A stretch of 64,000 bases of DNA from Planctomycetales bacterium (GCA_030612725.1 JAUWNJ010000011.1:14996-78995), one strand, 5' to 3'. Positions 31,856 to 57,174 are shown, counted from the stretch's first letter. The notes: generated by a model not told the origin, from the letters alone. Numbers and translations: made by a program.

Positions 31856-32064
31856 GTGAAGGTTATGCGCAGTGACCGGCTGGCTCTGATATACCACATC
31901 CCTCTTGATTTTGGTGAGAGTTTGCTCGTCTGAAGGCTTGGATGATAGGAATTCTCGGCAAACATGCGAATAGCGGTTTCAACCCGATCTTGATCTACTC
32001 TGGACAGTTTTTTGAAGCGCTTCTTGAAATGGGACGTGCGCCTTATCCGCATCGGCCGGGCCAC
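31801..32064 (-). CDS. type II toxin, RelE/ParE-superfamily mRNA interferase-like
   Basis: 83-87 aa (GTG at 32064 or ATG at 32052). SHFKKRFKKL ... HPSL ... WYIRASRSLRITF ... VMLRTVGTHDII is the RelE/StbE-type pattern. It directly follows a small acidic-tailed ORF. Confidence 0.7.
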   Translation of the reverse strand: MARPMRIRRTSHFKKRFKKLSRVDQDRVETAIRMFAENSYHPSLQTSKLSPKSRGMWYIRASRSLRITFTWDEGNVMLRTVGTHDII

Positions 32065-32403: not shown

Positions 32404-32436
32404 ATGTGTTTTCCTTTCTTTCAAAGTCCTCACTTT

Positions 32437-33150: not shown

Positions 33151-33366
33151 CACTTACGCAAGCAACCATCTCTCAAAACCCAATCGATCTACCTCCCTGT
33201 GAGAACGTTGAAAGTAACAGGCTCCATCCACATAACCATTATAGCAACAATTCCAACAACTGGTACAAGATTTTTATCGGACGATTCTGTCCGAGTCCTT
33301 GCCTTTTAAATCAGCCGGTTCCAGTCTTACTGCTTTTGGAGTGCATAACGCATAAGGATACTATCG

Positions 33367-33594
33367 CTACTGCGGCAAGGTCTGTAGCAGTTTTTTGTCT
33401 TTGCGGCGGGACCACCATGCTGATGCTGCGGCGATTGCAATTGCCGCAAGAAATGCGCCCAGGCTGGCGGCGGTGTCTTTGGTGATGTTTTCTACGCCGG
33501 TTTTGGCGGCAAGTGCGGCGGTGGCCCAGAGGATTCCGCGTGCGAGCGTTCCGCCGAGCAGTTTTATTGCTTCAGTCTTATCCACGATTACCAA
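33367..33594 (-). CDS. small two-TM membrane protein, holin-like
   Basis: 72-75 aa (TTG at 33594, or GTG at 33585 nine nt after GGAGA). Two hydrophobic helices (GILWATAALAA; LGAFLAAIAIAAASAWW) and a basic tail RRKDKK. It is the last gene of the phage-like block. Confidence 0.5.
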   Translation of the reverse strand: MVIVDKTEAIKLLGGTLARGILWATAALAAKTGVENITKDTAASLGAFLAAIAIAAASAWWSRRKDKKLLQTLPQ

Positions 33595-33625
33595 TCTCCA
33601 AAAAAGTCTCCACGCCGTCGCAGCG

Positions 33626-33949
33626 TTAAAGCCCGGCAGCCGCGAGCGCGACTGCCAAGAGTATCCTCATCAGGGCTGTCAGTGCCGACTTCTGCAGCGC
33701 AATGCGTTCTGCGTTGCGGGCGTTCGCCTCTGTCCAATCGGCGTTCAGACTGTCCCATTCATTCAGAAGGGCGGAATTGTCCATCTTCGCCAACAGGCTG
33801 CGGTAGGCAGCCTCAATGTCGCCGACGATAAGCCGGTTGAGCCATGCCTTGAATTCGTCGCCGGTCATCGCCAGCAGCGCCGGGCCGTATTCATCGACCC
33901 AGGGCTGCAACTTTTCGGGAACCTTCGCTTTGAGTTCGTCGATGGTCAT
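33626..33949 (-). CDS. C-terminally membrane-anchored small protein (lysis-module associated)
   Basis: 107 aa. A soluble helical N-terminal part and a C-terminal TM helix LMRILLAVALAAAGL. Its ATG overlaps the upstream stop (ATGA). Confidence 0.5.
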   Translation of the reverse strand: MTIDELKAKVPEKLQPWVDEYGPALLAMTGDEFKAWLNRLIVGDIEAAYRSLLAKMDNSALLNEWDSLNADWTEANARNAERIALQKSALTALMRILLAVALAAAGL

Positions 33950-34230
33950 TTATCCTGCCCGTCCTTTCCGCTTGTGGCTTTGCCATCACGTGCATCCCTG
34001 AACTTCCGCCAGGTTTCGGACTGCTTGACGAGCGCCTCGGTCATTTCATCTTGTGTCAGCGCGCCGACCTTTGCCCGTGTAGCCGTCTCGATCGACAAGG
34101 TCGTAGTCTTGTCCAGAAGTGCCGAGTATTCGGCGTTCATGATGACGCCTGAGCATCCAGCCACGACGGGAAGGACAACCAGCACCGCCAGAAGGCACAG
34201 CACCGACAATCTCTTACTTCTGTCTTCCAT
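33946..34230 (-). CDS. small lipoprotein, o-spanin-like
   Basis: 94 aa. Signal peptide with lipobox LPVVAGC. RBS gaggag. It overlaps the preceding gene by 17 nt. Confidence 0.55.
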   Translation of the reverse strand: MEDRSKRLSVLCLLAVLVVLPVVAGCSGVIMNAEYSALLDKTTTLSIETATRAKVGALTQDEMTEALVKQSETWRKFRDARDGKATSGKDGQDK

Positions 34231-34492
34231 TTCGAATCTCCTCTTTCAGGTCCGCCATTGCCCGGCGGACGAATTGTTGCGTTTCGGCGAAACGCGTCAT
34301 AACGGCCGTATTGTGTTCGACGACTTCGATGAGTTCGCTGAGGCGTTGCTCGTCGCGGATTATCCTGCCATGGGCTTCGGTGAGTTGTTCTTCTCTGGTT
34401 CTGCTGTTTCGTCGTTCCCAAAGCCACATTCCGCCCATAAGACCGGCAGCGCCGAAACTCGCCAGGTCGCTGATAAGACTTGGGCCTAACAT
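34214..34492 (-). CDS. N-terminal TM plus coiled-coil protein, i-spanin-like
   Basis: 92 aa. TM segment ISDLASFGAAGLMGGMWLW followed by a charged helical region (EEQLTEAHGRIIRDEQRLSELIEVVEH). RBS aaaggag. Confidence 0.5.
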   Translation of the reverse strand: MLGPSLISDLASFGAAGLMGGMWLWERRNSRTREEQLTEAHGRIIRDEQRLSELIEVVEHNTAVMTRFAETQQFVRRAMADLKEEIRNGRQK

Positions 34493-34523
34493 TGCAATTG
34501 CTCCTTTTTAGAAAAGAATTTCG

Positions 34524-34625
34524 CCGCAGAGAACGCAGAGAACGCAGAGGTAAAAAAACAGATGTCATTGTTGTTTTTATTTCTTTTTATACTAAACATC
34601 TCTGCGTCCTTTGCGTTCTCTGCGG
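34524..34625. repeat. 26-bp near-perfect inverted repeat with a 50-nt AT-rich spacer
   Basis: ccgcagagaacgcagagaacgcagag (34524-34549) pairs with ctctgcgtcctttgcgttctctgcgg (34600-34625), with 2 mismatches. The arms are themselves 9-mer tandem repeats (GCAGAGAAC). It lies between the tail genes and the lysis-like genes. Confidence 0.8.
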
Positions 34626-34692
34626 TAAATTCCGTTTCTTCTGTTTCTTTCGATACATTCGCGTTTTCTGCGGTTCATTTTGTTATGGTTTC

Positions 34693-35733
34693 TTAGTTTG
34701 GCGGCGAGTCGAGGTCGAACTCGACGGTCAGTTCGCCGGAGACGGCGATAGTTTGGTATCCGGTATCGCTTCGACGTATGAGGAAGTTCTGCTCTGACCC
34801 GTCGATCATGTTCTGGACGGCGGTAACCAGGGCGGTGTTCGAGAGTTGCCCGGCTACATTGGCTGTCAGGCTCATCGCTCCGATATATGTCGCGTCGCCT
34901 GCACCCGTCCCGCCGGGCGTAGCCCATGATGCCGACGCGCTCGGGTCGTACTTGTTCCAGGTCGGCGGGTCGCCGGTAAAATCAATCGCGCGGAGACAGT
35001 GATAGATCTCGACGTTACAGGTCGTATCAGCGGTCAGTTTGATTTTTGTGGATGATCGCGCGGTAACGTTCGTCAATCCCAGAGGCGGCGAGTCGCTCGT
35101 GCGTGCGCGGACGAATCCGACGCATCGCAGTTCGTTCGTGCCGTTGTTGGCTATCGAAGAACCTATCCAGGGCGTATTTGGTAGTTGCGAGAATATCCCG
35201 CCTGAGAGATAAATCGGAAATTTCCATCGTCCGCGTCGGATGTATTCGATGGCTTGTCGAAGTTCGTTGAAATGTACTGCCCGGACGGAGGATTGTCCTG
35301 CGGTCAGCGTTACGTCGGTCCACACGCTCGTACCGTTGAGTTTGCCGAAGAATGCGACTTCGCCGCTTCCGGGGTTCATCACGACGAGAGTTTTGTTTTC
35401 GTCGGCGTCGGCGACAGGCCAAAGCCAGTCCATTCCCGCGGGCGAGGCGGGGCTTCCGCCGAGTCCTCCGATAGCCGGTTCGAGAATGTCGCTGGTAATA
35501 GACGAGCGGAAATTTTTGAACGGAGGGGGAAACTGCGTAGCGATTGTAGTAACCCAGACCGATTTACCCGCACCGATCTGCGAGGAGAAATCCTGCCCGG
35601 GCAGATACACCAGGCGTCGTCGGCGATTAGTGGCGCCGGCCTGTTCGGACGCATCGTCGTCGCGGATGGAGTGCGCTCCGGCGTCGAGTCGGCCTTGGGC
35701 GTTAGCGTTTGTCCATGTAGCGGCGTAAGTCAT
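34693..35733 (-). CDS. phage-like structural protein (distal tail/fibre region; function unassigned)
   Basis: 346 aa, part of the coupled minus-strand operon. No family was recognised. Confidence 0.6.
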   Translation of the reverse strand: MTYAATWTNANAQGRLDAGAHSIRDDDASEQAGATNRRRRLVYLPGQDFSSQIGAGKSVWVTTIATQFPPPFKNFRSSITSDILEPAIGGLGGSPASPAGMDWLWPVADADENKTLVVMNPGSGEVAFFGKLNGTSVWTDVTLTAGQSSVRAVHFNELRQAIEYIRRGRWKFPIYLSGGIFSQLPNTPWIGSSIANNGTNELRCVGFVRARTSDSPPLGLTNVTARSSTKIKLTADTTCNVEIYHCLRAIDFTGDPPTWNKYDPSASASWATPGGTGAGDATYIGAMSLTANVAGQLSNTALVTAVQNMIDGSEQNFLIRRSDTGYQTIAVSGELTVEFDLDSPPN

Positions 35734-35737
35734 AAAT

Positions 35738-36295
35738 TCAATCCAGATATTTGGCGTATGCGGGATGGTCGAAGACGTACCGGGTAGTCGCCGGTGTTCC
35801 GTTGTCGGTGATCGTCAGCGCCAGAATGATCGTGTCGTTTCCGACGGCTGCTCCGGGTCCGAGAGACAGTTCCGCCAGGTTATGCGCCGTCAGGTTCGTC
35901 GCGCCGGGCGCGTCGGTGAAAGTACCGGCTCCGGTGGCGACCTGCTCGCGGACGGTGTATGCGGCATTACCTTGGGAGGCGGTTATCTTTGCCGGGAACA
36001 TCGCCGATCCCGTCGGCCTGATGAAGACGATCCACCGCCCGCCGACGTCTATTGCGACAGCCTTGGTGTTATCCGGTAGAAGCCCGTCGGTATCGGTCGG
36101 TTCGGCAAGGTTGGTAACTGTCATCGTTTCGCTGCCTACGGTTTCGGCTTCTCCGGCGGCGTCGAAAGCGATGGGTCTGGCGGTGTACTTATTTAACTGG
36201 TCGTGCGTGGTTATTTTGACCAATTGTGCCGCTTTGCTTCCGGCAACTTCCGTCCACCGCTCCAGTGCGTCGTAATAATTGTTTTTTCCGGACAT
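35738..36295 (-). CDS. phage-like structural protein (function unassigned)
   Basis: 185 aa from ATG 36295 (MSGKNNYYDALERW), 2 nt after the upstream TAA. Confidence 0.6.
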   Translation of the reverse strand: MSGKNNYYDALERWTEVAGSKAAQLVKITTHDQLNKYTARPIAFDAAGEAETVGSETMTVTNLAEPTDTDGLLPDNTKAVAIDVGGRWIVFIRPTGSAMFPAKITASQGNAAYTVREQVATGAGTFTDAPGATNLTAHNLAELSLGPGAAVGNDTIILALTITDNGTPATTRYVFDHPAYAKYLD

Positions 36296-36297
36296 GA

Positions 36298-38046
36298 TTA
36301 TCCGCTCACTTTCAAATGTGTTGCCCATTCCTCACCGCAGCGGTGTTCGACGGCGCGGACGTACGCCCAGGAACCGGGATAACCGCCGAGGGTCAATCCC
36401 CTGCCTTCAATCTGCTCGATTATGTCGCCGACGTTGCAGGTCGGATCAATTCGTCCGAGCGTCAGGTCAGCCTCGATTATGCCTGCGTTGGATTCGCTGA
36501 TGTTGTGAGCCAATTGTTTCAGGCGTGCCGAATCGTCGCGTTCTGCCGGGGCCGGCAGGTCTTGGCATTGGTAAAATATGCTGCTGTCGTGCACCTTCGA
36601 CCATTGGGCAGAGGGAATCTGTATTATTTCGGTCGGTACCGAGACGTCGCCCGAAACCTCGGCGCTGATATGCCTGTCCGAAGCGAGGGTGGCCGTTACG
36701 CGGACCTTTATGGTTGCGTCAATGGCGACGGCCTGGAAGTAATCGGCAGGAAGTGCGTCGTCGGACAGATAGATTGCGCATTCGTCGCGGGCGACTCGAA
36801 TTGCCCCGCCGTAGCGCCGCCAGGCGGCTCCGTCGTCGTAACTGACCTCGACGACGATTCCCAGACTTTCACCGGATGGGTTCACCGACAGGCAAGGCTC
36901 GAATCGCCTGTTAATCGACAGGAGGAAATCGTCGCTGCTGATGTCGGCGAAATCGAATTTTTCAAGGTTGCCGGGCCCGTCGCAGTATTGCCCCGATTCG
37001 TTCAGCACCCACTTCCTGAACACCTCGGACGCTGCGGGCCAATCGTCTGATTCGTCGCGGATGAAATCGCGGTAGTGGTAGGATTCCAGTGCAGTGTCCC
37101 ATCCTTTTTTGAGCGTGAAGGTTGATTCGTACCGTTTCAGGTCGCCGATGATCGAGACTTCCCGGCGGGCGGGTCGGCGGTTGAACGCAACCTTACCTTT
37201 CCAGAGATTGCTTCGCTCCCCGTCGAGAGTTTCGCCGGCCCGTTGTAGTCGAATCGCCCTGCGCCTTCCTGTCCTGCCCGGACGATAAAAAATCAGGGAT
37301 GAAGGACCGCCGCCCCAGCCGCTTCGTATCGACAGACCTGCAAGAGCAGCCGTTCGCGCAAGCGCCTCGCGCACAGGCAACCCCGTCAGAGACAACCGAG
37401 GGGGATAAATTGCCCAGGCTGGGCTTTCGGGTTCTTCATAACCGAATGCATCAATGTCCGACGGGACGCAGCAAGCGAGGAGATAATTCAGAATATCGGC
37501 GACGGACCAGAGTTGTCCACCGGAATCTGCTGAAAATATCCGGCAGGAGCGGGAATTGACCTGGTAAGTTTCTTCACTTGCCAATCCGGTCGGTTCGGTG
37601 TTGAAAACGCACTTTCCGGTGGGCACAAACTTTGCGGATGCCTCGTTTTCCTGCCGGCGTCCACCAATGGCATGGTTCAGGCGCGTTGCCAGGACGTTTT
37701 CGGCTTCTATGGCGAGAGATTCTTCATCGGGACCGGCGCCGGCAAGATGACGGGAGACGTAACCGTCGAACACCACATGCTCACCGACGTCGGCCAGGCG
37801 TATTTGCAGACTTTCGCCGATTGCCGGAAGGACGCCGACGTCCTCAATGCGACGGTTCGGACGATACCTGCCCGACATGGCCATTACGATTTTCGCACGG
37901 GCGAAATCAGGAGCCGGAAGTATGCTCCAATTCTCCACGTGCAGGTCCCGCCTTCGCAGGCCGTTGACATAGACCGGCATCGGTGGGGGGCTTGTTACGT
38001 TTGTCGTCGCCGAATCCGGATGAATGGTCAAATCGCTCACCTTCAC
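36298..38046 (-). CDS. phage-like large tail/baseplate-type protein (function unassigned)
   Basis: 582 aa. Same operon, 3-nt gap to the upstream gene. Confidence 0.6.
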   Translation of the reverse strand: MKVSDLTIHPDSATTNVTSPPPMPVYVNGLRRRDLHVENWSILPAPDFARAKIVMAMSGRYRPNRRIEDVGVLPAIGESLQIRLADVGEHVVFDGYVSRHLAGAGPDEESLAIEAENVLATRLNHAIGGRRQENEASAKFVPTGKCVFNTEPTGLASEETYQVNSRSCRIFSADSGGQLWSVADILNYLLACCVPSDIDAFGYEEPESPAWAIYPPRLSLTGLPVREALARTAALAGLSIRSGWGGGPSSLIFYRPGRTGRRRAIRLQRAGETLDGERSNLWKGKVAFNRRPARREVSIIGDLKRYESTFTLKKGWDTALESYHYRDFIRDESDDWPAASEVFRKWVLNESGQYCDGPGNLEKFDFADISSDDFLLSINRRFEPCLSVNPSGESLGIVVEVSYDDGAAWRRYGGAIRVARDECAIYLSDDALPADYFQAVAIDATIKVRVTATLASDRHISAEVSGDVSVPTEIIQIPSAQWSKVHDSSIFYQCQDLPAPAERDDSARLKQLAHNISESNAGIIEADLTLGRIDPTCNVGDIIEQIEGRGLTLGGYPGSWAYVRAVEHRCGEEWATHLKVSG

Positions 38047-38049
38047 TCC

Positions 38050-40179
38050 TCACAAAATCTGGATGGACGCCGGGGCTGAAACCAGGGGTACGAACACGAT
38101 TTCACTTATCGGACCGACCTGTTCGCCCCGACGTGCGCGGACGGCCAGAAGCACCGGCGTGTCGGGCCTGTCGATGGGGACCTCAAAGTCGAACCGGTCA
38201 TTCCGCGACTTTTCAACCGTCGCGACGGGGTTTTCAAGGTCCAGTTGCCCCGTACCGTTGTCGCTGAGAACATCGAAACCGTCGGCATCTGCAAAACCGA
38301 TCGGCGTCAGATAAGTAAATCCGATTAGCAAGGCGCTGTGCTGCACCTCAACCGTCGGGTCTTTCGGGCGCGTGAGCGGAGCGGGCAGGAGAATTCCCTG
38401 CTCGTCGGTATTGGCGTATGCAATGACGTGGGTATTGCGCTCCTGGACACCCGATGATGAGACAGATCGGACGGCATAGATGTAACGCTGTCCGGGCGAC
38501 AGGTTCTGCGAGAGTGTGATGCTGTTGGGTCCGGGCATGAGATACGCAATAGGATTTTCCCATTCGATGCCCTCGAGACCGCCGAGACCTCGATAGACGT
38601 TGTTGCCAGTGGTCGAAAATGCCACTGTCATAAGCGGCGAGCCGACGGCTGCGGCGAGGTAATCGAGGTGCTCGACCGCCACGGCGAACGCCTCGGCCAG
38701 TGAGCCGCCGATGCGGAGCATCTCGAAGAAACTTTCGGCATCGACGTTTATCCCGTCGTTACCGGCGCTACCCATCGCGGCGGCGTAAAGCGCCGTCAGC
38801 ACGGCTTCGCTGCATTCGGTCGTAGCGGCCCGCATTGTCCCCAGGCTGGCTACAGAAGGGTCCACAAAGACCGCCCTGCTGCCGGCGGAACCCCAGTCGG
38901 GCATGGTATTGCCCCAGACAAAAGCGTCGTCGGCGAATGTTCCAAGCCCCGCCGTGATAATCCGTAGATGCTGACAAGCGAGGCTCGCTCGATAAGCCGA
39001 ATCGTTACTGAAAAGTTTGTCCGTGGCGGGAAGAAATCCGCAATCCGCAATCCGCAATCCGCAATCCAGCACGTCTTTAGAGTGCTGCAACGTATCGGCG
39101 TCGATCCGCGTGCAGAGATACTTTCCGCCCATCGCCGCTTTCGTCAGCCTGGCGACTGTGGCGGGGTTGTAGAGCGGGTTCGTCGTCTGCGACGAAAACG
39201 CCGTTCCATAGTTCATCAGTCGGCTTGTGGCCGAATGCTTCAAGCCGCCGGAAGTGAAATATCCAGGCACGCCGTAGCCGAGCAGGAAGCACGAGCAATT
39301 AGCCGCCACTGTCGGATTCAGCGTCAGCCAGGCGGCAAGGTCGGTCTCCACTTCGGCCTCGAACGTCGCGTAGTCTGCGAGAGATTCGTTCGCCGTGGCG
39401 TTCGGCAGCGGGCAGAGATTCGCACGGGGGATGTCCAGTTCGCTTACGCAGTAATCGGCGAACTCCCTTGATTCCGAATCGTCCCGCCTGAACAGAACGA
39501 CAGTCCGGGCCGCTTCGGGATAATCGGTCAGTGGCGTCGACGTGAATGGTTCGGGGTATTCATCGAGTGCGATTTTTACCTCGTCGAAATCGTACCAGTA
39601 ACCGTCGCGTGGCCCCGCCGGGCAACCCATTCGCAGTAAGTCCACGGATGCGAAACGGTCGTAATTGTCTATACCCGTAGCCTCATCGAGCAGTTGACCG
39701 TCGAAATATAAACGCAGAACGCCGTCGTTGGCGGCGACGCCGCTTGACCGTCGCAGCGCGAAAACAAGATAAGAAAAACGGTCAAGGACAAGACCGGTTA
39801 CATAACCGGCGGTGTGAGCAGCGCCTCCGTCGTCCTTTGTGCTTACCTTTATTTGCAGGTCAGTCAAAAGCAGCGAGTACAGGCCGGTCGTTGAACCAAG
39901 GGCGTCTTTCACCATTAAGGGATACGTATAATTCGACGGGTAACTGCCGGGCCTCATCCAGAAGCCGAAATAAATCCAGCCGCCGGGGTCAAGCGAAACA
40001 TTGAGGTTTTTCTGCACGTAAGCGACATCGGTTCCGACGATAGTCGTTCGCAGCACTGCATCGCCGCGACCGCAGGCATCTCCGGCAACTGGAACGATGG
40101 TCGAATCACCGGCTTCAAATTTTAAATCCCACTCGCCGAGAGCGGGTACCTCGTTGTCGATGTAATGAAGGAGGCTCAT
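38050..40179 (-). CDS. putative receptor-binding/tail-fibre-like protein with an N-terminal LamG/concanavalin-like region and a TIGR03790-like domain
   Basis: 709 aa from ATG 40179 (MSLLHYIDNE, RBS aggagg). The longer ORF to 40368 runs through heptamer repeats and is unlikely to be real. LRLYFDGQLLDE is a LamG-like segment. VVLFRRDDSESREFADYCVSELDIPRANLCPLP...FLLGYGVPGYF resembles TIGR03790 family proteins (from memory). It contains an in-frame (AATCCGC)4 block at 39035-39062. Confidence 0.6.
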   Translation of the reverse strand: MSLLHYIDNEVPALGEWDLKFEAGDSTIVPVAGDACGRGDAVLRTTIVGTDVAYVQKNLNVSLDPGGWIYFGFWMRPGSYPSNYTYPLMVKDALGSTTGLYSLLLTDLQIKVSTKDDGGAAHTAGYVTGLVLDRFSYLVFALRRSSGVAANDGVLRLYFDGQLLDEATGIDNYDRFASVDLLRMGCPAGPRDGYWYDFDEVKIALDEYPEPFTSTPLTDYPEAARTVVLFRRDDSESREFADYCVSELDIPRANLCPLPNATANESLADYATFEAEVETDLAAWLTLNPTVAANCSCFLLGYGVPGYFTSGGLKHSATSRLMNYGTAFSSQTTNPLYNPATVARLTKAAMGGKYLCTRIDADTLQHSKDVLDCGLRIADCGFLPATDKLFSNDSAYRASLACQHLRIITAGLGTFADDAFVWGNTMPDWGSAGSRAVFVDPSVASLGTMRAATTECSEAVLTALYAAAMGSAGNDGINVDAESFFEMLRIGGSLAEAFAVAVEHLDYLAAAVGSPLMTVAFSTTGNNVYRGLGGLEGIEWENPIAYLMPGPNSITLSQNLSPGQRYIYAVRSVSSSGVQERNTHVIAYANTDEQGILLPAPLTRPKDPTVEVQHSALLIGFTYLTPIGFADADGFDVLSDNGTGQLDLENPVATVEKSRNDRFDFEVPIDRPDTPVLLAVRARRGEQVGPISEIVFVPLVSAPASIQIL
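39035..39069. repeat. tandem heptamer array (AATCCGC)x4 plus one degenerate unit, inside the 709-aa gene
   Basis: Read directly: aatccgc aatccgc aatccgc aatccgc aatccag. It is the reverse complement of the array at 40192-40223. Confidence 0.9.
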
Positions 40180-40556
40180 ATTTCGCCTCCTGATTGCGGA
40201 TTGCGGATTGCGGATTGAGGATTTTCGACAACAGACAGAAGGTCTTCTGTGATAGACGCGAGGCGGGATTCGTCGTCGGCGGGATGCCCATGATTCAATT
40301 GTACAAAGACAGGGCGTAGGGCGTAGGGCGTAGGGTGTAGGTTGTTTTCGCCTGGTCCCAAGTCCCAAGTCCCAAGTCCCTGAATCTCGTAGAAACGAGA
40401 TTCGTGCGTCGGATGCCGTTCCGTCCGCTTGTGCTCGGCTTCGACGCTCGGCGGTTCGCCGTCGGTCAGATACTTCGGGTCGATCCGCTCTGCTCGGAGC
40501 GTCAGCGTCCGCTTCTCGCCTTTACTGAACGGCGGATTGTGAATTGAAAATTCCAT
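40176..40556 (-). CDS. questionable small ORF spanning the heptamer-repeat region
   Basis: 126 aa. ATG at 40556, and its TGA overlaps the next ATG (ATGA), which argues for translation. However, about half of it is encoded by four tandem heptamer arrays, and no family was recognised. Confidence 0.3.
   Translation of the reverse strand: MEFSIHNPPFSKGEKRTLTLRAERIDPKYLTDGEPPSVEAEHKRTERHPTHESRFYEIQGLGTWDLGPGENNLHPTPYALRPVFVQLNHGHPADDESRLASITEDLLSVVENPQSAIRNPQSGGEI
40192..40223. repeat. tandem heptamer array (GATTGCG)x3 plus degenerate units
   Basis: gattgcg gattgcg gattgcg gattgag gatt, located 13 nt upstream of the ATG at 40179. Confidence 0.9.
40312..40341 (+). repeat. tandem heptamer array (GGGCGTA)x3 plus GGGTGTAGG; canonical G-quadruplex motif on the plus strand
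   Basis: There are four G3 tracts at 40312, 40319, 40326 and 40333, separated by 4-nt loops, then a terminal GG at 40340. Confidence 0.85.
40357..40380 (-). repeat. tandem heptamer array (GGGACTT)x3 plus GGG on the minus strand; G-quadruplex motif in the mRNA sense
   Basis: The plus strand reads ccc aagt ccc aagt ccc aagt ccc. Confidence 0.85.
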
Positions 40557-40568
40557 TCTTTCTGTTTT

Positions 40569-40593
40569 CCCCTATTCCCTATTCCCTATTCCC
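40569..40593 (-). repeat. tandem heptamer array (GGGAATA)x3 plus GGGG on the minus strand; G-quadruplex motif
   Basis: The plus strand reads cccc tatt ccc tatt ccc tatt ccc, between the stop at 40607 and the ATG at 40556. Confidence 0.85.
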
Positions 40594-40606
40594 AAGTCCG
40601 TGTCTG

Positions 40607-41599: not shown

Positions 41600-41609
41600 G
41601 GTTATCTCC

Positions 41610-42344
41610 CTAATAAATCTGAAGAGTCAGTTGTTTTTGCTGGTGGTCGTAGTTTGTTACCGATAAACCTTCCGCTGCATCGGGCAGGGGGTTTGCGTCG
41701 ATGTACATTGGGTCTGAATCCGCAACCTGCCCGTCGGCCCGGCGTGATCGCAGGACGATTTGGTGCGAGCCTTCTTCCGGAAGGTCGGCTTCGAGGTCGA
41801 TAAGGTCGGCGTTTATTCCGAACATACCGGCTCCGAATGCTCCCTCGCCCGCCCCCGGTGCACATGTACCGTCGTATCCGAATCCGCCTTTTCCGAATTG
41901 GTCTTCTCCGAACTGCCATCGCGGAACCCATGCCGGCCAGGTTTGGGTCGATGCCAACGGTGTCTCCGACACCTCGCCACCACCGGCATGATTTCCCAGA
42001 ACCTCGACCGTGTCGTCGGGGCGACCGGAAACAGGCCTGGGGATTTGTGGGCGAAAAACCCAGGAAGGATTGCGATCATCGACCGGTAATTGTTCGGATA
42101 AGTCTGTTGTGCGGTATTTACCCTCAACGGCCGCCACGCAAACAGCCGTCGGTGCGATGTCCGGTTCGTCGATGAAAAATTGTCGTTGACCCGGCGTATC
42201 CGTCCAGTCGGAGAGTCTGCCGTTGAGGTATAATTGATGATGCAGATCGGCATTGTCCGAACTGAAGCGAACGGACCATCCCCCGGCAAAACTCATCTCG
42301 CCGATGACGTACTCGATCCCGGTTGTAATCAGTGTAGCGGTCAT
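41610..42344 (-). CDS. phage-like structural protein (function unassigned)
   Basis: 244 aa. 4-nt start/stop overlap with the upstream gene. Confidence 0.6.
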   Translation of the reverse strand: MTATLITTGIEYVIGEMSFAGGWSVRFSSDNADLHHQLYLNGRLSDWTDTPGQRQFFIDEPDIAPTAVCVAAVEGKYRTTDLSEQLPVDDRNPSWVFRPQIPRPVSGRPDDTVEVLGNHAGGGEVSETPLASTQTWPAWVPRWQFGEDQFGKGGFGYDGTCAPGAGEGAFGAGMFGINADLIDLEADLPEEGSHQIVLRSRRADGQVADSDPMYIDANPLPDAAEGLSVTNYDHQQKQLTLQIY

Positions 42345-42706
42345 GGTAATTGGCGATACTCGATCTCATAGTCGCAGTAGAATCCCCTGCTGTGTTGCAA
42401 CGGGGTGGTGGTTCGGAATCGTTCCAGTATCACATGCTGGTGGGACTGGTTGTGGTTATCGAGAAGGACGTGCTCGGCTCCGTCGCAGAGTGCGTTGATG
42501 TCGTCCAGTATTTCGTTCAGGTTATTGGCGGTGTCGGCTTGGAGTCGTCCCGTCTGCGTGATTTGTCGTGAACGGAGTCCGAGGTCCAGGACGATTTCAC
42601 CATTGACGCCGGCAAAGCCTCGACGCTGCACGCTTCTTTCCCAATACCCGAAACGGAAGGCGTTGGGGCCTGAACCGAAAAGATTTTCCCCGGCGTAGGA
42701 ACTCAT
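42341..42706 (-). CDS. phage-like small structural protein (connector/adaptor size class)
   Basis: 121 aa. ATGA overlaps on both sides. Confidence 0.6.
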   Translation of the reverse strand: MSSYAGENLFGSGPNAFRFGYWERSVQRRGFAGVNGEIVLDLGLRSRQITQTGRLQADTANNLNEILDDINALCDGAEHVLLDNHNQSHQHVILERFRTTTPLQHSRGFYCDYEIEYRQLP

Positions 42707-43113
42707 ACCTGTGCCTCCTGTGAAGCGAACGGGTCGGTGTCGCCTTCATTGGCTTGGGCGGTAAAGGTCAGTTTCGCAACGGCAGGGGCGGATTGCTCGT
42801 ATTGGAACTCAATCCCTATCAGTACGGCGTCGGTTATGGAGATGCTCCGTCCGTTCTGTTCGCTGCGAGTGGGGGCTATTTCGACGGCCAGAACGCCTGC
42901 CTGTCCAAGAGAAAGACTCTCGGCAACGGCTGTGTCGCGAATGCGAATCTCGATATTAATTACAGGTCTGGACAGCTGGATACTAATGGAAAATGCGTCG
43001 TTGTCGCCGCCCATCGGAGCCGGTTTGGCCTGTCGTAGAATCCTGACGGAAACGGGTCCTGACAGGGCGGTCTGGTCGAAGGTCGCGCTGGTAATGTCGC
43101 CGTAACGTTCCAT
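42703..43113 (-). CDS. phage-like small structural protein (connector/adaptor size class)
   Basis: 136 aa. Translationally coupled. Confidence 0.6.
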   Translation of the reverse strand: MERYGDITSATFDQTALSGPVSVRILRQAKPAPMGGDNDAFSISIQLSRPVINIEIRIRDTAVAESLSLGQAGVLAVEIAPTRSEQNGRSISITDAVLIGIEFQYEQSAPAVAKLTFTAQANEGDTDPFASQEAQV

Positions 43114-43547
43114 TATTGCGCCTCCTCCGATTCAAAGTTGCAGCGGATTTCAAACGTAACCGCAAGGTAGGGTTTTTTGACTTTCGGTTCGATTTTGAGA
43201 GGCCCTGTTTCCGTCGCTTTTCCCGTCGGTAAGTCCCTGCACATGTTGGTTCGGAAGCGGTCGGTCAGAAGCGATTCACAGGCCGATGCCGCCAGGTCCA
43301 GCGCGCGGGCGAAGGCGTCCGAAGTGTTGTGACAACGGACGTGGACGCATACTTTTGCCCGCAGGGTGTAGAATTTTCCGGTGGGACTGTCGGTTGCATT
43401 CGATTCATCCATACCGATGAGGTTCACCTCCGCGCGGGGAATCTGTGCCGAATCGGCGTCAGACCCGATCGTAACGGCGGCGAATAAGTCGGCGACCCGA
43501 AGGGTGTCGCGGATGTCGATCAGGATGTTGCGGGCTTGGATTGACAT
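43113..43547 (-). CDS. phage-like small structural protein (head-completion size class)
   Basis: 144 aa. Translationally coupled. Confidence 0.6.
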   Translation of the reverse strand: MSIQARNILIDIRDTLRVADLFAAVTIGSDADSAQIPRAEVNLIGMDESNATDSPTGKFYTLRAKVCVHVRCHNTSDAFARALDLAASACESLLTDRFRTNMCRDLPTGKATETGPLKIEPKVKKPYLAVTFEIRCNFESEEAQ

Positions 43548-43552
43548 GATTT

Positions 43553-44203
43553 TCAGGTTCTCCGTAGCGAGATGTTTGCAAGCGTCCGGGTCTGCTCGGC
43601 GAAACCGTCGCCGTCGATGTCTTTTGCCAATCTCAGCGCAGCGACGGCGGCGACGTGCTGCCTGCGATAGAATTCGGCCTTTACCCAGTTCGCGTCGGAA
43701 TCTGCGGCGTTGGATGCCTGTGCCGTGAACACAGACGACAATACCGCAAAGGCAATCGCTTTACGCATCTGCGACGAATCAACGAAATTAGTCGCGGAAA
43801 TACCGTTGGCTTCACCGATCTGTCGGAGTTTTTCGTGTAGTGTCGCTTCGCAATCGGCAATTTGAGGTCTGAAGGTGTGGATGTTATATTGCAGATCGGA
43901 CTCTGCCGGTGGTGCGATAGCCTCGGCTTCGCGATCCGCGCGAAGAACCGATATCGTCAGCATCGAAGGTGAATCCACCGAGATAATTTCATAACACCGC
44001 CCCTCCGACGGAACAGTCGAATAGACGCACAGCACCATACCGGGCTGGATATCCACGGATTGAAAATTACCCGATGCACTGAAAGTCGTTCCGCTGATGG
44101 TGCCGTAATCCCCGGATGCCGGTTGCTGGGAATTGAATCCTCCACCGGTGAATACATCCGGCTCGATGGCCAGAAGGTCGCGGTCTTTACATTCGTTCGC
44201 CAT
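43553..44203 (-). CDS. phage-like protein downstream of the capsid gene (head-tail adaptor position)
   Basis: 216 aa. Its position immediately after the major capsid gene is the only evidence. Confidence 0.55.
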   Translation of the reverse strand: MANECKDRDLLAIEPDVFTGGGFNSQQPASGDYGTISGTTFSASGNFQSVDIQPGMVLCVYSTVPSEGRCYEIISVDSPSMLTISVLRADREAEAIAPPAESDLQYNIHTFRPQIADCEATLHEKLRQIGEANGISATNFVDSSQMRKAIAFAVLSSVFTAQASNAADSDANWVKAEFYRRQHVAAVAALRLAKDIDGDGFAEQTRTLANISLRRT

Positions 44204-44314
44204 TTTTCTTGTCCTTGTCCGGCTTTTCCGCCCCCCGCCCGGTAGGCGGGAGGCGTCAAAGCGATCATCGCCGTTCCGGTCGAAGATACGCCTGGGCGGG
44301 CGATGGTTAAATTC

Positions 44315-45475
44315 CTAGGCTGTATCAAGCCCTTTGATGATCCCGTGTGCGTTTTCGTTACGCAGTTCCATCGTGTACTCGCCGATGACTTCGCCGGCTT
44401 CGTAATCGCCGACTGCCGCCAGGGGCTTGTAGTAGAAACTTCGTCCTGCAAGCGGAAGCACGCCGGTTCGGGACGAATCCAGAAGAAGGACGCAATCGGC
44501 GGGAACCGCCCTGCACAAGATGACCCGGCAGACGCCGAAATCGCTCTCATAGACGCCGACCATATCGCGGTAGGCCTCGTCCGAAGGTCCGTACGCTCTG
44601 CTTGAGGTGATGAAGGAGTTAATCCGTCGCTTCTGGTATCCCGATACGACGACGGTGTCGATCCGACTGGATGCCTGCTCCCAGACCAACCGCAGCGCGA
44701 GGTTCAGTTGCGCCTCGGTCAGGTCGGTGTCAGCCGGGAATCCGCCGACGTTGGGTTTGAAGATGTTCGTCGCCAGGTGCGGGACAATCCCCTTCATCGT
44801 CCGCCGGACGCTGCTGCTGCCCTGCGGGTCGGACGATGGACTCGTACCGTTGATTACCGTCGCTTCCAGATCGCGGAGCAGTTCGCGCAGACGTTCGGTC
44901 TTCTGGTAGTCCAGTTCGTCGGCGACCGAGAGTTTTCTGACCGCATGGTCCGATCCGCTGACGCGAACGGCGGCGGTGAAAATCTGCGTCCAGTTACCTT
45001 TTCGGGTGCGATTGGTGAATCGCACCGACGGAGAATCGTCGCCTTCCAAGGCTGCGTTTCCGAGGATGTGCAGCACCTGGTCGTCGTTGAGATTTTCCGG
45101 CGTGGTCCCGCCGTAGCCTCTCGTAACGGTGATAGTACCTGCTCCGGTGTCGTGGGATGTTACCAGAAGCAGTTCGCTCGAACCGGCCGGTCTGACCTGG
45201 TCGCCGATGCGGAAGCGGTCTGCGTTGTCGATACCGAAGGTCGTATCAACGGCAGGATCGGTCCAGACGGCGTCGTCGATTGTGTCGATGTTCGGAAGCA
45301 GTTCGTCTTCAAGCCACTCGTGATACGTGCTCGAAGCCGGTCTGATCGGGTCTCCGAGGTGGTCCAGAAGCGGCGTCTCGTACGGTGAGACGATGCTTAC
45401 GATGTCGGAAACGTCTTCTGCAATTTCCGGTAACGTTGAACCGGATGAATATGTCGCTTTACCTGTAAATGCCAT
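44315..45475 (-). CDS. major capsid protein, HK97-fold (DUF5309 / SU10-type family)
   Basis: 386 aa. The N-terminal EDVSDIVSIVSPYETPLLDHLGDPIRPASSTYHEWLEDEL matches the remembered family pattern (..IsP.eTPf...lG......t.heW.eD.L). It follows a scaffold-like gene and a portal-like gene. Confidence 0.75.
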   Translation of the reverse strand: MAFTGKATYSSGSTLPEIAEDVSDIVSIVSPYETPLLDHLGDPIRPASSTYHEWLEDELLPNIDTIDDAVWTDPAVDTTFGIDNADRFRIGDQVRPAGSSELLLVTSHDTGAGTITVTRGYGGTTPENLNDDQVLHILGNAALEGDDSPSVRFTNRTRKGNWTQIFTAAVRVSGSDHAVRKLSVADELDYQKTERLRELLRDLEATVINGTSPSSDPQGSSSVRRTMKGIVPHLATNIFKPNVGGFPADTDLTEAQLNLALRLVWEQASSRIDTVVVSGYQKRRINSFITSSRAYGPSDEAYRDMVGVYESDFGVCRVILCRAVPADCVLLLDSSRTGVLPLAGRSFYYKPLAAVGDYEAGEVIGEYTMELRNENAHGIIKGLDTA

Positions 45476-45515
45476 TTTGTTTCTCCATGATTGTTCCGTA
45501 GGGATGCCTACGGCA

Positions 45516-46136
45516 TTAGTAGTTATTGTTTTCCTGTCGTCGCAGGCGCAGGTATTCAGCTACGTCCCGTCGGTTCCCCGTTTGGGCGGCCTGTGTGGCC
45601 GATCGCGTCAGGCGAGCAGCGGCATCGACGCCGTCAACTCGCGCAGAAGCGGTTTTTCCGGGAAGCCCCGTCGGGACCGAAGTCAGGATGGGTTTGGTCT
45701 GAAGAAGTTGATCAACGGCTTGACGCATCTGCTTTTCGTCGATGTCGTTGGAAAAGACGATGCGTTTTTCCAGAAGCGCCATTGCCGTTTCGATGTCCGC
45801 TACACCGGCGTCGCGAAGCATTCGCTCTGCCGACGATTGCGTATGCAGCGTGTCGATTTGATGCCGGAATTCGTCACGCTGCGATTCCGCTTTAGCCAAC
45901 TGATCCAGACGTTCTTCCAACTGCGTCTGTGTATCCTCGAGCCTCTGCTCAAACTGTTGGAGCACGGATTCCGCCTGCTGGGCGCGACGACGATATTTTA
46001 TCGCCTCGCTGACCGGTATAAGTCTGGACTCCGGCCCGGCAGTGGGAGTGTGAGGTTCCGCATCAGCAGACTGTGAAACTTCCTGTGTTTGCTCCGGTGA
46101 TTGGTTCGTCATTTGTCTATTCCTTTCGATGTTCAT
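45516..46136 (-). CDS. capsid scaffolding protein-like (coiled coil)
   Basis: 206 aa. Q/E/R-rich heptad-like helices (QQAESVLQQFEQRLEDTQTQLEERLDQLAKAESQRDEFRHQIDTLH). It lies between the portal and capsid genes. Confidence 0.5.
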   Translation of the reverse strand: MNIERNRQMTNQSPEQTQEVSQSADAEPHTPTAGPESRLIPVSEAIKYRRRAQQAESVLQQFEQRLEDTQTQLEERLDQLAKAESQRDEFRHQIDTLHTQSSAERMLRDAGVADIETAMALLEKRIVFSNDIDEKQMRQAVDQLLQTKPILTSVPTGLPGKTASARVDGVDAAARLTRSATQAAQTGNRRDVAEYLRLRRQENNNY

Positions 46137-47710
46137 TTCTTGTTGGAGGTGTTCAGGCTTTCGGTGTCGTATCCGAGTTCGGCGAGGACGCGATCGGCGG
46201 GAACCCCCAGAGACGCCTTGACCTGGGCGTCGGCGAGACGCTGGGTCTGGTCTTCAGGAAGGGGGCTTGGCCAGTGAATCTCGACGCGACGATCTTCGGC
46301 GTCGGTTCGCAGCACGCCGGCCTTGTCGAGCAGGTCCAGAACAAGTGAGATAATCTCGCCAAGCCCGTGCCCGTAAGTAATCCGCTTCTTCTCGGTCCGG
46401 CTGATGAGTCCACTCAGCAGGACTTTCAGGGCAGTCGCGCTCGTCAGGTTTCCGACGTTTCCCCGAAGAAGTCCCGCTGCCAGACCGGTTACGCCGGAGA
46501 CTTTGTCCATCGCCTCGCGGATTTGCTCGATGTGAATATCTTCGCTGGGCGAGCCTGAATCGTGCCCGAACTCCTGCACCGATGCGTCGGGATTATGCGT
46601 TGACCACATCTGGCCGGGACCGACGGGTCTGTCCAGGAAATCGTCGATACCCTTGGCGAGGTACATCTTGAACGACTGATAAGTTACGCGATAGGCCCGA
46701 TCGCTAAGCCGGGTGTTGAGTTCGTCCTGGAGCGAAAGCATCGGCTCGACGTCGCTGATTCCCTCGTAACTTCCCGGAAGCGAGACGTTTTGGATATGCA
46801 CGAGCGGGATTCGCCCCAGCGAGTTGGGGCCTTCAGCCACAAGGAGACGGTCTTCGTATCGTTGCCACCAGTTGGCTCCGAGTATTTCCACTACTTCGAC
46901 GGTTTTTGGATGGACGTCGCGCCGCCCCGACCATCCGAAACTCATGATACCGTGATTGACGCCTTCGAGTTGCGAGGTCTGTTTGCGGAAACACTGAATC
47001 CAGTAACGCGCGGTGCGGAAATCGTTTTCATCGAGGATGGGGATAATCCGCGCCGCCTCAACGACCTCCAGCGTCAGCCGGCGCACGAGTTTTCCGATAG
47101 GCGGGACCGGCAGGGAAGAATCCCGCTGATTCTGGGCTTCTTCCCCTGCCGGCGGGTTGGGACGGGTGAAAGGAGGTTTATTCGCGTTGGCGGGCCAATC
47201 GACGGGCATCCGAAGGATTACGTCCACGAATCCATAGACCGATCCCATCAACGCCAGCGTCTGAAAAAACGTCTGGCCACCGTTGGCGTCAAAGAGATTT
47301 TTTATGACCGATTCGATTATCTCAGCCGTTGCCGGTTCGCGGGCCAGACTTCGGATACTGACGGGTTTTCCGAAAAGAAAATCCACCATCGTGTGTATCC
47401 GCCAGGCAATGTCGTTTTCGATGACCACTTCCTTGCGGGCAAGGTTTGTTACGTGCTCTGCGCCGATACCGAAGCGGTTGATTCCGGTAATCCTCGCAGG
47501 CAGACCGATCTCCTGTGCCTGAAAATAGGGCCTGCTGTTGGTATTGAGCGCGTCGGCGGCCAGACCTACTGCCGGTGCGATAGGATTGCGGAAATAATCC
47601 CAAAGCCTGGAAAAATGCAGATGTGCATCCGTCGCTTCGGCGTCCACGAGATAACCGACGTAATCAGTTTCCAGCGTCGGGTCGTTGAAGTTTTTCAGTT
47701 TGAAACCCAT
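46133..47710 (-). CDS. phage portal protein-like
   Basis: 525 aa from ATG 47710 (RBS ggtgaggagag); the track ORF opens with GTG at 47725. It has the right size, is the first gene of the head module, and its N-terminal RLWDYFRNP resembles the R...L..YY.G motif of SPP1-type portals. Not verified by search. Confidence 0.55.
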   Translation of the reverse strand: MGFKLKNFNDPTLETDYVGYLVDAEATDAHLHFSRLWDYFRNPIAPAVGLAADALNTNSRPYFQAQEIGLPARITGINRFGIGAEHVTNLARKEVVIENDIAWRIHTMVDFLFGKPVSIRSLAREPATAEIIESVIKNLFDANGGQTFFQTLALMGSVYGFVDVILRMPVDWPANANKPPFTRPNPPAGEEAQNQRDSSLPVPPIGKLVRRLTLEVVEAARIIPILDENDFRTARYWIQCFRKQTSQLEGVNHGIMSFGWSGRRDVHPKTVEVVEILGANWWQRYEDRLLVAEGPNSLGRIPLVHIQNVSLPGSYEGISDVEPMLSLQDELNTRLSDRAYRVTYQSFKMYLAKGIDDFLDRPVGPGQMWSTHNPDASVQEFGHDSGSPSEDIHIEQIREAMDKVSGVTGLAAGLLRGNVGNLTSATALKVLLSGLISRTEKKRITYGHGLGEIISLVLDLLDKAGVLRTDAEDRRVEIHWPSPLPEDQTQRLADAQVKASLGVPADRVLAELGYDTESLNTSNKK

Positions 47711-47741
47711 ATATGCTCTCCTCACCCTTTACTTTTGCGTT

Positions 47742-47763
47742 CGCGTTTGCGCGCGCAAACGCG
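47742..47763. repeat. 22-bp perfect palindrome cgcgtttgcgcgcgcaaacgcg (copy 1)
   Basis: Read directly. It lies 32 nt upstream of the portal ATG. The same 22-mer recurs at 47851-47872. Confidence 0.9.
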
Positions 47764-47847
47764 CACAAAAAAACCATCGGGGCGGCATAAGTCCTTGGGG
47801 CCCAACGAAATTATTTTTTTACTTTTTTTGTTCCCCCTGATTTTTAC

Positions 47848-47875
47848 GTTCGCGTTTGCGCGCGCAAACGCGAAC
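47848..47875. repeat. 28-bp perfect palindrome gttcgcgtttgcgcgcgcaaacgcgaac (copy 2, extended)
   Basis: Read directly. Its centre is about 109 bp from the centre of copy 1. Confidence 0.9.
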
Positions 47876-47965
47876 ACAATGCAGTTAAGGTGGCGTGCCC
47901 CCCGAAAACTGTACCAGTTGAAATGGGAGATTTTTCGAGAGAAAAAGGTGATCAATCGGAGTTGT

Positions 47966-48048
47966 CCAGCGAGCCGCGACCGCAAAGAAGCGGACACAGC
48001 ACACCGATTCCCGCAAAAATCCGCTTCCTTGCGGTCGCGGCTCGCTGG
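47966..48048. repeat. 29-bp inverted repeat (one mismatch) with a 25-nt loop
   Basis: ccagcgagccgcgaccgcaaagaagcgga (47966-47994) pairs with tccgcttccttgcggtcgcggctcgctgg (48020-48048). Confidence 0.85.
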
Positions 48049-48099
48049 GCCGTTTAGGCAAGATGGGTAAGGATCATTTCATCCCCGTCGGAATAAAAC

Positions 48100-48139
48100 A
48101 AAAGGTCGCCGCGTTCTGCGGCGACCTTTTGGTTTTTTT
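48100..48139 (-). terminator. intrinsic terminator of the cyclophilin gene (bidirectional shape)
   Basis: The 9-bp GC stem ggtcgccgc/gcggcgacc has loop gttct. It is flanked by an A-run on one side and a T-run on the other, 28 nt after the stop at 48167. Confidence 0.7.
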
Positions 48140-48166
48140 GCGGACCAGTGCGATTTCCCCAAAGGG

Positions 48167-48874: not shown

Positions 48875-49030
48875 GAGCAAATCCTCCTGAAAAAGCAGAA
48901 TGGAAATCGACCATTCTTCCGCTGAAAAAGAGGCCTGATGCTCCGGGACGACCGAAACGAGCAAAGCCTCCTCCTTTCGAACAAATGCAAAATCCAAGCA
49001 ACAGCAATTGAGCACTAATCGCGAAAAAAC

Positions 49031-57092: not shown

Positions 57093-57174
57093 TTTTTCGC
57101 TCCTTTTCTGAATTCCCACATTCCAATTAACCAAACCAATAACTATCCAAACGAACGATTTGTATTAACTTCTG

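Follow-up and report, generated by a model that had tools for sequence, protein, structure and literature searches.

The stretch of Planctomycetales bacterium DNA analyzed here (GCA_030612725.1 JAUWNJ010000011.1:14996-78995; 64,000 nt, hereafter the window) contains a block of 17 intact co-directional genes on the minus strand, which runs from 47710 down to 33367 (about 14 kb) and encodes phage-type portal, scaffolding, capsid and tail proteins. A Pfam scan of most long open reading frames (ORFs) in the 64-kb window showed no terminase, phage integrase, repressor or replication genes. The block probably goes back to a phage that was domesticated long ago in Phycisphaerae (Planctomycetota) and would now be a vertically inherited gene cluster for the production of particles, comparable to a gene transfer agent (GTA), of the kind called viriform. 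Related loci from other genomes are designated by L-numbers (L001, L086, and so on).

The block starts with the head genes (Table 1). Profile searches upheld the original prediction, made on the sequence of the window, of a terminase-less and integrase-less phage-particle operon: the first gene encodes a portal protein, the gene after it a scaffold-like protein, and the third a DUF5309-type major capsid protein. Scaffold and portal genes are joined by an ATGA overlap, and the scaffold orthologue of L087 shows a weak match to PF06810. These three are the best conserved genes of the block. The portal, which provides the docking ring and the channel for DNA, is encoded by an intact gene in 78 of 85 loci; a clear truncation was found only in L060 and L085, and four further loci have one stop in the alignment, which probably is the regular stop codon. 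Of 77 capsid genes, 73 are intact and none is broken, the other four ending at contig ends, and the protein shows a median identity of 64% across related loci. Because the head genes are kept, intact and best conserved, the earlier description of the system as possibly tailocin-like was dropped.

Around the block, the window contains host genes. Those identified by Pfam encode a HAD hydrolase, a heparinase-like protein, a GH39 protein, nuoE-like and glutamate-synthase-like proteins, PurB, MurD, two M16 peptidases, a Mur ligase, an aminotransferase and several PEP-CTERM proteins. Other ORFs were named by eye (cysK, iscU, iscS, NtrC-like, nuoF-like, and a 226-aa Fe-S-type protein at 27835-28515), and a 3405-aa ORF was left out of the Pfam scan. 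The sole integrase-like signal in the window is a 105-aa IS-type transposase fragment (rve_3, 3e-20; 17332-17649), which lies in a 2-kb gene-poor stretch of lower GC and is unrelated to the block. Queries with large (TerL) and small (TerS) terminases retrieved no remnant, either from the window or from the 456 bp between the portal gene and its upstream neighbor, in agreement with the original claim that terminases are missing from the whole 64 kb.

The related loci gave the same picture. Comparison by phmmer of four large and two small terminases with all ORFs of at least 80 aa in 91 loci and the window produced only the self-match of a TerS in L085. Neither terminase nor integrase appears among the precomputed Pfam annotations for 14 related loci in 12 relatives, which show the block from the portal gene to the four small genes with host genes on both sides, several of them on contigs of 170 kb-2.4 Mb; in L097, the whole element lies between purB and the homoserine dehydrogenase gene. 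When the upstream ORFs of 73 loci were clustered, the inspected clusters common to at least three loci were host genes (e.g., purB, murD, argB, ribokinase, glycoside hydrolase, and M16 peptidase) and none was terminase-like. A PHROG scan of 96 representatives of the flanking ORFs showed no terminase among the matches listed (25 families; 57 further matched). A relative with the same block plus a terminase, an integrase, a repressor or a replication gene was not seen in about 90 related loci, within about 10 kb around the block. The same layout across these loci, which come from different species, led us to reject a recent deletion derivative. The original view that this is neither a normal nor a recently deleted prophage stands, on the conservation of the terminase-less and integrase-less state in about 90 loci, purifying selection and host codon usage.

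Portal homologues number more than 2885 in the protein collection. The best 120 are 54-92% identical and, where named, belong to Phycisphaerae or Planctomycetota metagenome-assembled genomes; in a scan with one genome per species, portal relatives were found in 352 species. The portal query retrieved a single relative (L085) from 2.9 million IMG/VR viral contigs, and the closest capsid protein among 50,697 GenBank phage records is at most about 33% identical, with 30% identity over its full length. In L085 (IMG/VR UViG_3300031673_016560, 51-9576) the portal gene lacks its first 138 codons, and upstream of it are a small-terminase gene (PF03592, 1.4e-26) and a helix-turn-helix gene on the opposite strand, two radical-SAM genes and an HsdM methylase gene. 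These neighbor genes have no homologues at any other locus. L085 looks like a rearranged copy picked up by a virus predictor and, with its truncated portal and unrelated neighbors, gives no evidence of a complete phage of this family.

Each clade keeps the same host genes next to the block. Of 27 loci, almost all have a divergent purB at 230-1040 bp upstream of the portal gene (2.8 kb in L033); the portal proteins of the purB clade are 54-73% identical to that of the window, and murD is often beside purB, as in the window. In seven loci the neighbor is argB (portal identity 51-52%), and in at least 14 it is a glycoside hydrolase together with a ribokinase (48-51%). Only in the window lineage are purB and the block separated by an inserted cyclophilin gene, whose product has a signal peptide and a PEP-CTERM anchor; in L001, L009 and L010, purB directly adjoins the portal gene. 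A subclade of twelve loci (including L015, 9249-9671, and L097, 772-1101) shows, between purB and the portal gene and on the purB strand, a gene for a small membrane protein of 109-145 aa, which in L097 belongs to the MamF_MmsF family. The comparison of the syntenic locus, suggested with the original prediction, found these clade-specific neighbors without terminase or integrase. Pairwise identities average 61% for the portal and 68% for PurB, which means that the portal changes at about the slow pace of a housekeeping enzyme. The distance matrices show a weak but significant correlation (Mantel r 0.34, p 0.007, 18 taxa; r 0.46, p 0.02, 10 taxa). The clade-specific synteny supports vertical inheritance; tree congruence is not established.

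The absent functions are exactly those that a helper could supply, and an improbable alternative is that the block is a helper-dependent, satellite-like mobile element which borrows terminase, replication and excision from a co-resident phage. The different upstream neighbor of the closest relative and the small-terminase gene near the block in L085 would agree with it. However, the block has no integrase, att site, replication or interference genes, its chromosomal position is fixed and clade-specific across species, its codon usage is host-like and it is nearly absent from viral contigs, while the only viral contig has a truncated portal and neighbors without homologues elsewhere. To our knowledge, phage satellites carry no complete tail. 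Satellites of the known types (phage-inducible chromosomal islands or PICI, capsid-forming cf-PICI, and P4-like elements) were rejected, as no integrase, replication/primase or interference genes were found and a full tail-tip gene set is present.

Between the portal and cyclophilin genes there is a non-coding stretch (47711-48166) of 456 bp, noted before as 440 bp of palindrome-rich DNA, which contains two palindromic repeats and a hairpin. In each of the repeats the 12-mer TTGCGCGCGCAA sits within a perfect palindrome of 22-28 bp, and the 12-mer occurs twice in the 64 kb, both copies in this control region. Allowing one mismatch, 11 matches were found in 27.9 kb of portal-upstream DNA of the relatives vs. 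five in the other 931 kb, an enrichment of about 70-fold. L004, L009 and L060 show the pair at matching distances from the portal start (about -33 to -47 and -143 to -158), and L012, L022, L023, L025 and L050 show single copies. The pair looks like a candidate paired operator for a dimeric regulator; no regulator gene linked to it was found. Next upstream, as had been proposed, is a host gene with its own terminator: the terminator of the cyclophilin gene, which is bidirectional and lies upstream of the hairpin.

Homology between the window and L003 or L004 ends at 47878, and homology with L086 stops exactly at the 5' end of tRNA-Ser (30419). Of 14 related loci scanned for tRNAs, nine have none at the distal end; only L086 shows the tRNA-Ser(tga) junction again, and the remaining four tRNAs are different species located elsewhere in the flanks. 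The lack of an att duplication at the far end, also reported originally, was confirmed, since the only shared word is the 13-mer GTTTTTTTGCGGA (30505-30517 and 48132-48144). As an att site it was rejected: it is a T-rich, low-complexity sequence in the tail of the cyclophilin terminator, about 0.1 match is expected by chance, and the pair, which brackets the whole region from the tRNA-Ser 3' end to the terminator tail, misses both homology breakpoints and was judged a coincidence. A functional temperate prophage was likewise rejected, as no integrase with att sites, repressor/Cro, replication genes or terminase was found.

For all genes measured, the ratio of nonsynonymous to synonymous substitution (dN/dS) lies between 0.03 and 0.38 in comparison with relatives whose proteins are 57-99% identical. 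The portal has values of 0.10-0.15 and the hub of 0.16-0.19. The lowest values were those of the 92-aa membrane protein (0.03) and the capsid protein (0.07-0.10), and the highest those of the fiber (0.34-0.38), the 709-aa protein (0.26-0.33) and the scaffold (0.27-0.32). This check, proposed with the original prediction, indicates purifying selection that is not relaxed, and pseudogenes are almost absent; all 17 genes are unbroken, as the earlier inspection had noted. The host-like base composition also held: GC is 57.6% in the block and 57.5% in the host, and relative synonymous codon usage (RSCU) correlates between block and host with 0.948, vs. 0.953 when the host genes are split into two halves and compared. 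An ordinary defective prophage remnant, with its early region, terminase and integrase deleted and no host function, would account for a phage-derived and incomplete block near tRNA-Ser with a toxin-antitoxin pair alongside. It is nevertheless very improbable, given that the same "deletion" with the same boundaries appears in about 90 species-level loci, dN/dS is low throughout, only two of 85 portal genes are truncated, the upstream motif is conserved and the distal tRNA is missing from most of the related loci scanned.

Among the tail genes, the clearest assignment was obtained for the 582-aa protein. Its tertiary structure was modeled with AlphaFold2 on an alignment of 30 homologues (pLDDT 86.8, pTM 0.81), and Foldseek found 43 matches in PDB at E <= 1e-3, the best at 1.8e-12. 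Almost all of them are hubs or spikes from contractile systems, Mu-like phages, siphophage tail tips or T6SS (type VI secretion): the contractile injection systems of Anabaena and Algoriphagus, MuSo2, Mu gp44, the PVC injection system, Afp8, VgrG, T4 gp27, pyocin R2 and the tail tips of phages 80alpha, Bxb1 and HFTV1. Against predicted viral structures (BFVD), the model matched siphovirus and myovirus tail proteins. The gp27-type hub fold is a hallmark of long-tailed phages and their derivatives, contractile injection systems, and g13 of the Rhodobacter capsulatus GTA (RcGTA), and not one of podoviruses of the P22, T7 or phi29 type. The term podovirus-like used in the original prediction was dropped because this predicted baseplate hub of gp27/Mu gp44/VgrG type is present; Pfam and PHROG scans of the block and its homologues detected no adaptor or nozzle families. 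Tail tube, tape measure and sheath gave no match at the sequence level with Pfam, PHROG, NCBIfam or PDB profiles.

The 330-aa protein is predicted to be a modular receptor-binding fiber. Its N-terminal part is 35-80% identical in 43 loci, whose proteins range between 194 and 734 aa, and the C-terminal part of the homologues carries DUF2793, Phage_depo_C (phage depolymerase) or K1-lyase_C. In the AlphaFold2 model of the window protein (pLDDT 83.7), the C-terminal half is a jelly roll similar to carbohydrate-binding modules (CBM), which also matches the tail fiber of cyanophage A-1(L). In the 709-aa protein, Pfam found a weak match to Laminin_G_3 (0.003), PDB profiles matched the N-terminus to glucuronan lyase (2e-5) and CBM40 (5e-4), and the middle region is weakly similar to TIGR03790 (1.4e-4, below the family cut-off). 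The start of this gene, first placed at 40368, was corrected to 40179. Judged by sequence and modeling, the two proteins are thus putative receptor-binding proteins, glycan-binding or glycan-degrading, one of them with an exchangeable tip.

Heptamer repeats had been reported inside the block and near 63.8 kb. Those of the block are real: four arrays at 40192-40593, in the spacer between the fiber and 709-aa genes (GGGAATA, GGGACTT, CCCTACG, and AATCCGC on the minus strand, 3.4-4.6 copies each), and, with the last of these units read as GCGGATT, an array of 4.7 copies in frame inside the 709-aa gene (39035-39067). Tandem Repeats Finder lists none near 63.8 kb, and GCGGATT arrays were found only at 39035 and 40196. 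Gain or loss of one heptamer unit in the 709-aa gene would shift the frame, and the array could mediate phase variation. Relatives show a small gene (45-154 aa) in place of the 427-nt spacer. L003 and L007 have no GCGGATT array at the site in the 709-aa gene; in L086 such arrays are located elsewhere, one of them directly beside tRNA-Ser where homology to the window ends.

Taken as a GTA-like cluster, the block would work as follows. A host regulator would act on the paired palindrome and turn the operon on in some cells; proheads would assemble on the portal and be filled by a terminase encoded elsewhere in the genome. The DNA would most likely be that of the host, because the cluster has no replication module or recognizable packaging gene. 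Neck, hub and fibers would then be added, small membrane proteins would release the particles, and the fibers would attach to polysaccharides on the surface of related cells. The strong conservation of portal, scaffold and capsid suggests that heads form and are filled, from which we infer a terminase gene elsewhere. A wider proposal, which we regard as possible but hold only tentatively, is that an independent domestication of a tailed phage took place in ancient times at the root of a large part of Phycisphaerae. It would be the first GTA-like system in the Planctomycetota-Verrucomicrobiota-Chlamydiota group (also abbreviated PVC), forming DNA-carrying particles by means of a terminase at a separate locus, and it would have a new tail type in which a gp27-type hub and modular glycan-binding fibers occur without recognizable tube or tape measure.

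The main rival is a domesticated particle without DNA packaging, used for killing competitors (PBSX-type) or for carrying protein or other cargo, which would need no terminase. We consider it unlikely. It would fit the absence of a terminase from the cluster and from the surrounding 10 kb or so in about 90 loci, the match of the 92-aa protein to a PHROG labelled "bacteriocin production or immunity," and the fast-changing receptor-binding tips, which suit a strain-specific weapon. However, the PHROG match is weak (1e-6) and its label generic, and the most conserved genes are those of portal, scaffold and capsid, the portal being a DNA channel. PBSX-like prophages and tailocins resemble the block as phage structural modules retained by the host, with no self-propagation and with diversifying receptor-binding proteins. 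Tailocins have lost the head genes, which are the best conserved genes here, and PBSX keeps a terminase and packages DNA.

Several points weigh against a GTA-like particle cluster. No terminase was found in the regions searched, namely the cluster, the 64 kb and about 10 kb around about 90 related loci, and without a located packaging motor the term GTA is an analogy only, for a system known here from its genes. Endolysin, tail tube and tape measure were not recognized in the block by sequence searches, and eight structural proteins have no assigned fold, among them those of 216, 144, 136, 121, 244, 185 and 346 aa. Neighbor-joining trees of the element and purB for 10 taxa are star-like, with one shared split (p = 0.27), an underpowered comparison. 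Finally, the closest relative, L004 (92% portal identity), has a different upstream neighbor; therefore, either the block moves or its surroundings rearrange.

Compared with known GTAs, the block shows two of their features: a structural cluster in the host chromosome without replication, integration or lysogeny-control genes, and maintenance by the host, seen as vertical inheritance, purifying selection and host-like composition. The third, a DNA-packaging terminase, was not found in the cluster, the 64 kb or the 10 kb or so around about 90 loci. RcGTA-type systems (R. capsulatus, Caulobacter crescentus) are similar in their chromosomal structural cluster of about 14-15 kb lacking replication, integration and lysogeny genes, in their vertical inheritance, purifying selection and host-like composition, and in a tail tip with a gp27-like hub; some functions may sit at other loci in both. 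Furthermore, the DUF2793 of some fiber homologues is a domain of the RcGTA tail fiber Rcc00171 and of phage fibers (PMC5026251). They differ in that small and large terminase genes head the RcGTA cluster, whereas the portal gene comes first here and no terminase is nearby. In addition, the capsid protein of the block is of SU10/DUF5309 type, no prohead protease, tube or tape measure is recognizable, a membrane-protein cassette is part of the cluster, and the phylum is another one. No homology to RcGTA genes g1-g15 was detected by Pfam and NCBIfam for any gene of the block.

GTA genomes can be split, RcGTA over five loci and VSH-1 over two (PMC5026251). VSH-1, the GTA of Brachyspira hyodysenteriae, has a cluster of head, tail and lysis genes like that described here and a "genome" distributed over two chromosomal loci (PMC5026251), and is therefore a precedent for essential functions outside the main cluster. 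Its host is unrelated, as are its genes as far as compared, and VSH-1 packages and transfers DNA by experiment, whereas the present block is known from genes alone. Among phages, those with an SU10/DUF5309-type capsid and an SPP1-type portal (e.g., Sporosarcina phage Lietuvens, Clostridium phage CB452P1, and Pelagibacter phage HTVC106P) share the families and order of the portal, scaffold and capsid genes. They differ by their full genomes of 37-65 kb and by tail genes without detectable sequence similarity to the block, besides the low capsid identity given above; the four GenBank phages with a related capsid protein that were inspected all have TerL directly or one gene before the portal gene.

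Full-text literature searches gave no relevant description of a GTA or a conserved capsid cluster in Planctomycetes, Planctomycetota or Phycisphaerae, in line with the remark in the original prediction that no such system has been described for planctomycete-like bacteria. By analogy, we rate the block as a putative GTA-like viriform, in a phylum new for such systems, whose terminase is unlinked or absent and whose tail organization is undescribed. Few independent GTA lineages are known, and reviews ask how widespread they are (PMC11841831). If true, a class-wide capsid and tail cluster maintained by selection would be one more such lineage, in Phycisphaerae, which abound in sediments, soils, waters and digesters and are mostly uncultured. 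It would suggest a way by which genes are exchanged, or cells killed, in a phylum whose phages are almost unknown, and would be a natural case of a head-tail cluster working without a linked terminase. Prophage predictors likely take such loci for viruses or remnants, wrongly; they could be recognized by two simple markers, the conserved junction of purB with the portal gene and the pair of TTGCGCGCGCAA palindromes.

Table 1. Features of the particle-gene block and its borders, with window coordinates and the evidence for each assignment.
Feature	Coordinates	Strand	Evidence or remarks
Hairpin, 29-nt arms (97% complementary), 25-nt loop	47966-48048		Unique in the window; between cyclophilin terminator and control region
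Control region, two 46-nt direct repeats	47725-47770 and 47834-47879	-	109 nt apart, each centred on TTGCGCGCGCAA
Portal protein, 525 aa	46133-47710	-	PF05133 1e-16; phrog_104 4e-25
Scaffolding protein, 206 aa	45516-46136	-	phrog_15003 1e-5
Major capsid protein, SU10/DUF5309 type, HK97-fold, 386 aa	44315-45475	-	PF17236 SU10_MCP 5.5e-78; phrog_1328 6e-65
216-aa protein, neck/adaptor or head accessory candidate by position	43553-44203	-	In 66 loci, 62 intact
144-aa protein, neck-sized, lineage-restricted	43113-43547	-	Present in purB clade
136-aa protein, neck-sized, lineage-restricted	42703-43113	-	dN/dS 0.12-0.16
121-aa protein, tail completion/terminator/tube candidate	42341-42706	-	All clades, 61 loci; dN/dS 0.13-0.22
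244-aa protein, conserved Gly/Phe-rich central segment	41610-42344	-	Alignment; 52 loci
Predicted modular tail fiber/receptor-binding protein, 330 aa	40607-41599	-	Conserved N-terminal anchor of about 155 aa and exchangeable C-terminal domain
Non-coding spacer between fiber and 709-aa genes, 427 nt	40180-40606		Four different heptamer tandem arrays
709-aa tail protein, lectin-like	38050-40179	-	N-terminal concanavalin-A-like lectin/lyase domain; C-terminal fibronectin type III (FN3)-like domain
Predicted baseplate hub, gp27/Mu gp44/VgrG/Afp8 fold, 582 aa	36298-38046	-	AlphaFold2 model and Foldseek
185-aa protein after hub, spike-tip candidate by position only	35738-36295	-	58% mean column identity
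346-aa conserved distal tail protein	34693-35733	-	Alignment; dN/dS 0.13
92-aa protein, weakly hydrophobic N-terminus and coiled coil, first of four-gene cassette	34214-34492	-	phrog_2429 1e-6
94-aa lipoprotein, signal peptide and lipobox VAGC, outer-membrane spanin-like	33946-34230	-	Sequence reading, hydropathy scan
107-aa protein, C-terminal membrane anchor	33626-33949	-	Hydropathy scan
Protein of about 72-75 aa, two hydrophobic helices, holin-like, last gene of conserved block	33367-33594	-	Hydropathy scan
Lineage-specific genes outside the conserved core	30611-33153	-	238-aa protein, 122-aa putative antitoxin, 87-aa RelE/ParE-like toxin, radical-SAM enzyme

The minus-strand run is flanked by tRNA-Ser(tga) (30418-30506, plus strand) and the PEP-CTERM cyclophilin gene (48167-49015), and four further minus-strand genes (33153-30611) extend it from the block to the tRNA. 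The packing of about 20 genes by overlaps, as first described, was corrected: of the 16 junctions of the block, only six are overlaps (1-17 nt), whereas genes are 2-40 nt apart at seven and 111, 200 and 427 nt apart at the other three. The ten genes after the capsid gene have no Pfam, PHROG or NCBIfam family, except for the weak matches in the 709-aa protein; NCBIfam over the block proteins gave nothing but the sub-threshold TIGR03790 match. PDB profile searches with the 216-, 244-, 121-, 185- and 346-aa proteins found nothing credible; the 216-aa protein has no match in Pfam, PHROG, NCBIfam or PDB sequences, nor do the 144- and 136-aa proteins match a family in the first three. A PHROG scan of 85 homologues of the family-less tail genes gave single scattered matches only. 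In L002 and L098, the 144-aa gene and the next gene are apparently fused (278-282 aa).

The four small genes at the end of the block resemble a holin/spanin-like set. The 92-aa protein is 99% identical to its L086 orthologue, and the counterpart of the 94-aa lipoprotein in relatives is a lipoprotein of 166-170 aa. The architecture of this cassette is kept in L087, L089, L090 and L097, and its last gene, with two helices, is kept at the same position in these four loci as well as in L086 and L096.

The genes at 30611-33153 are common only to the window and its close relative L086. They include a radical-SAM protein of the spore-photoproduct-lyase family (30611-31897), found in the window's lineage, and a pair at 31801-32433 formed by an 87-aa RelE/ParE-like toxin (phrog_1213 9e-7; the ParE-like Pfam match is below threshold) and, ahead of it, a 122-aa acidic protein which is probably its antitoxin; outside the window this pair was found only in L086. 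Four divergent lineages have a separate gene of 121-135 aa for LigD_N alone (PF13298, 3'-phosphoesterase domain of DNA ligase D) directly after the four small membrane genes and on the same strand: L087 (15240-15611), L089 (14698-15087), L090 (4409-4774) and L097 (14727-15134). A link of the particle cluster to the repair of DNA ends or damage, to which LigD_N and the spore-photoproduct-lyase-family enzyme would point, is possible. Elsewhere in the window, the 3405-aa ORF (6747-16964, minus strand) is followed by a PEP-CTERM protein, and there are at least five other PEP-CTERM proteins, including those at 6038-6691, 56325-57134 (with DUF7901), 57175-57822 and 60072-61049.

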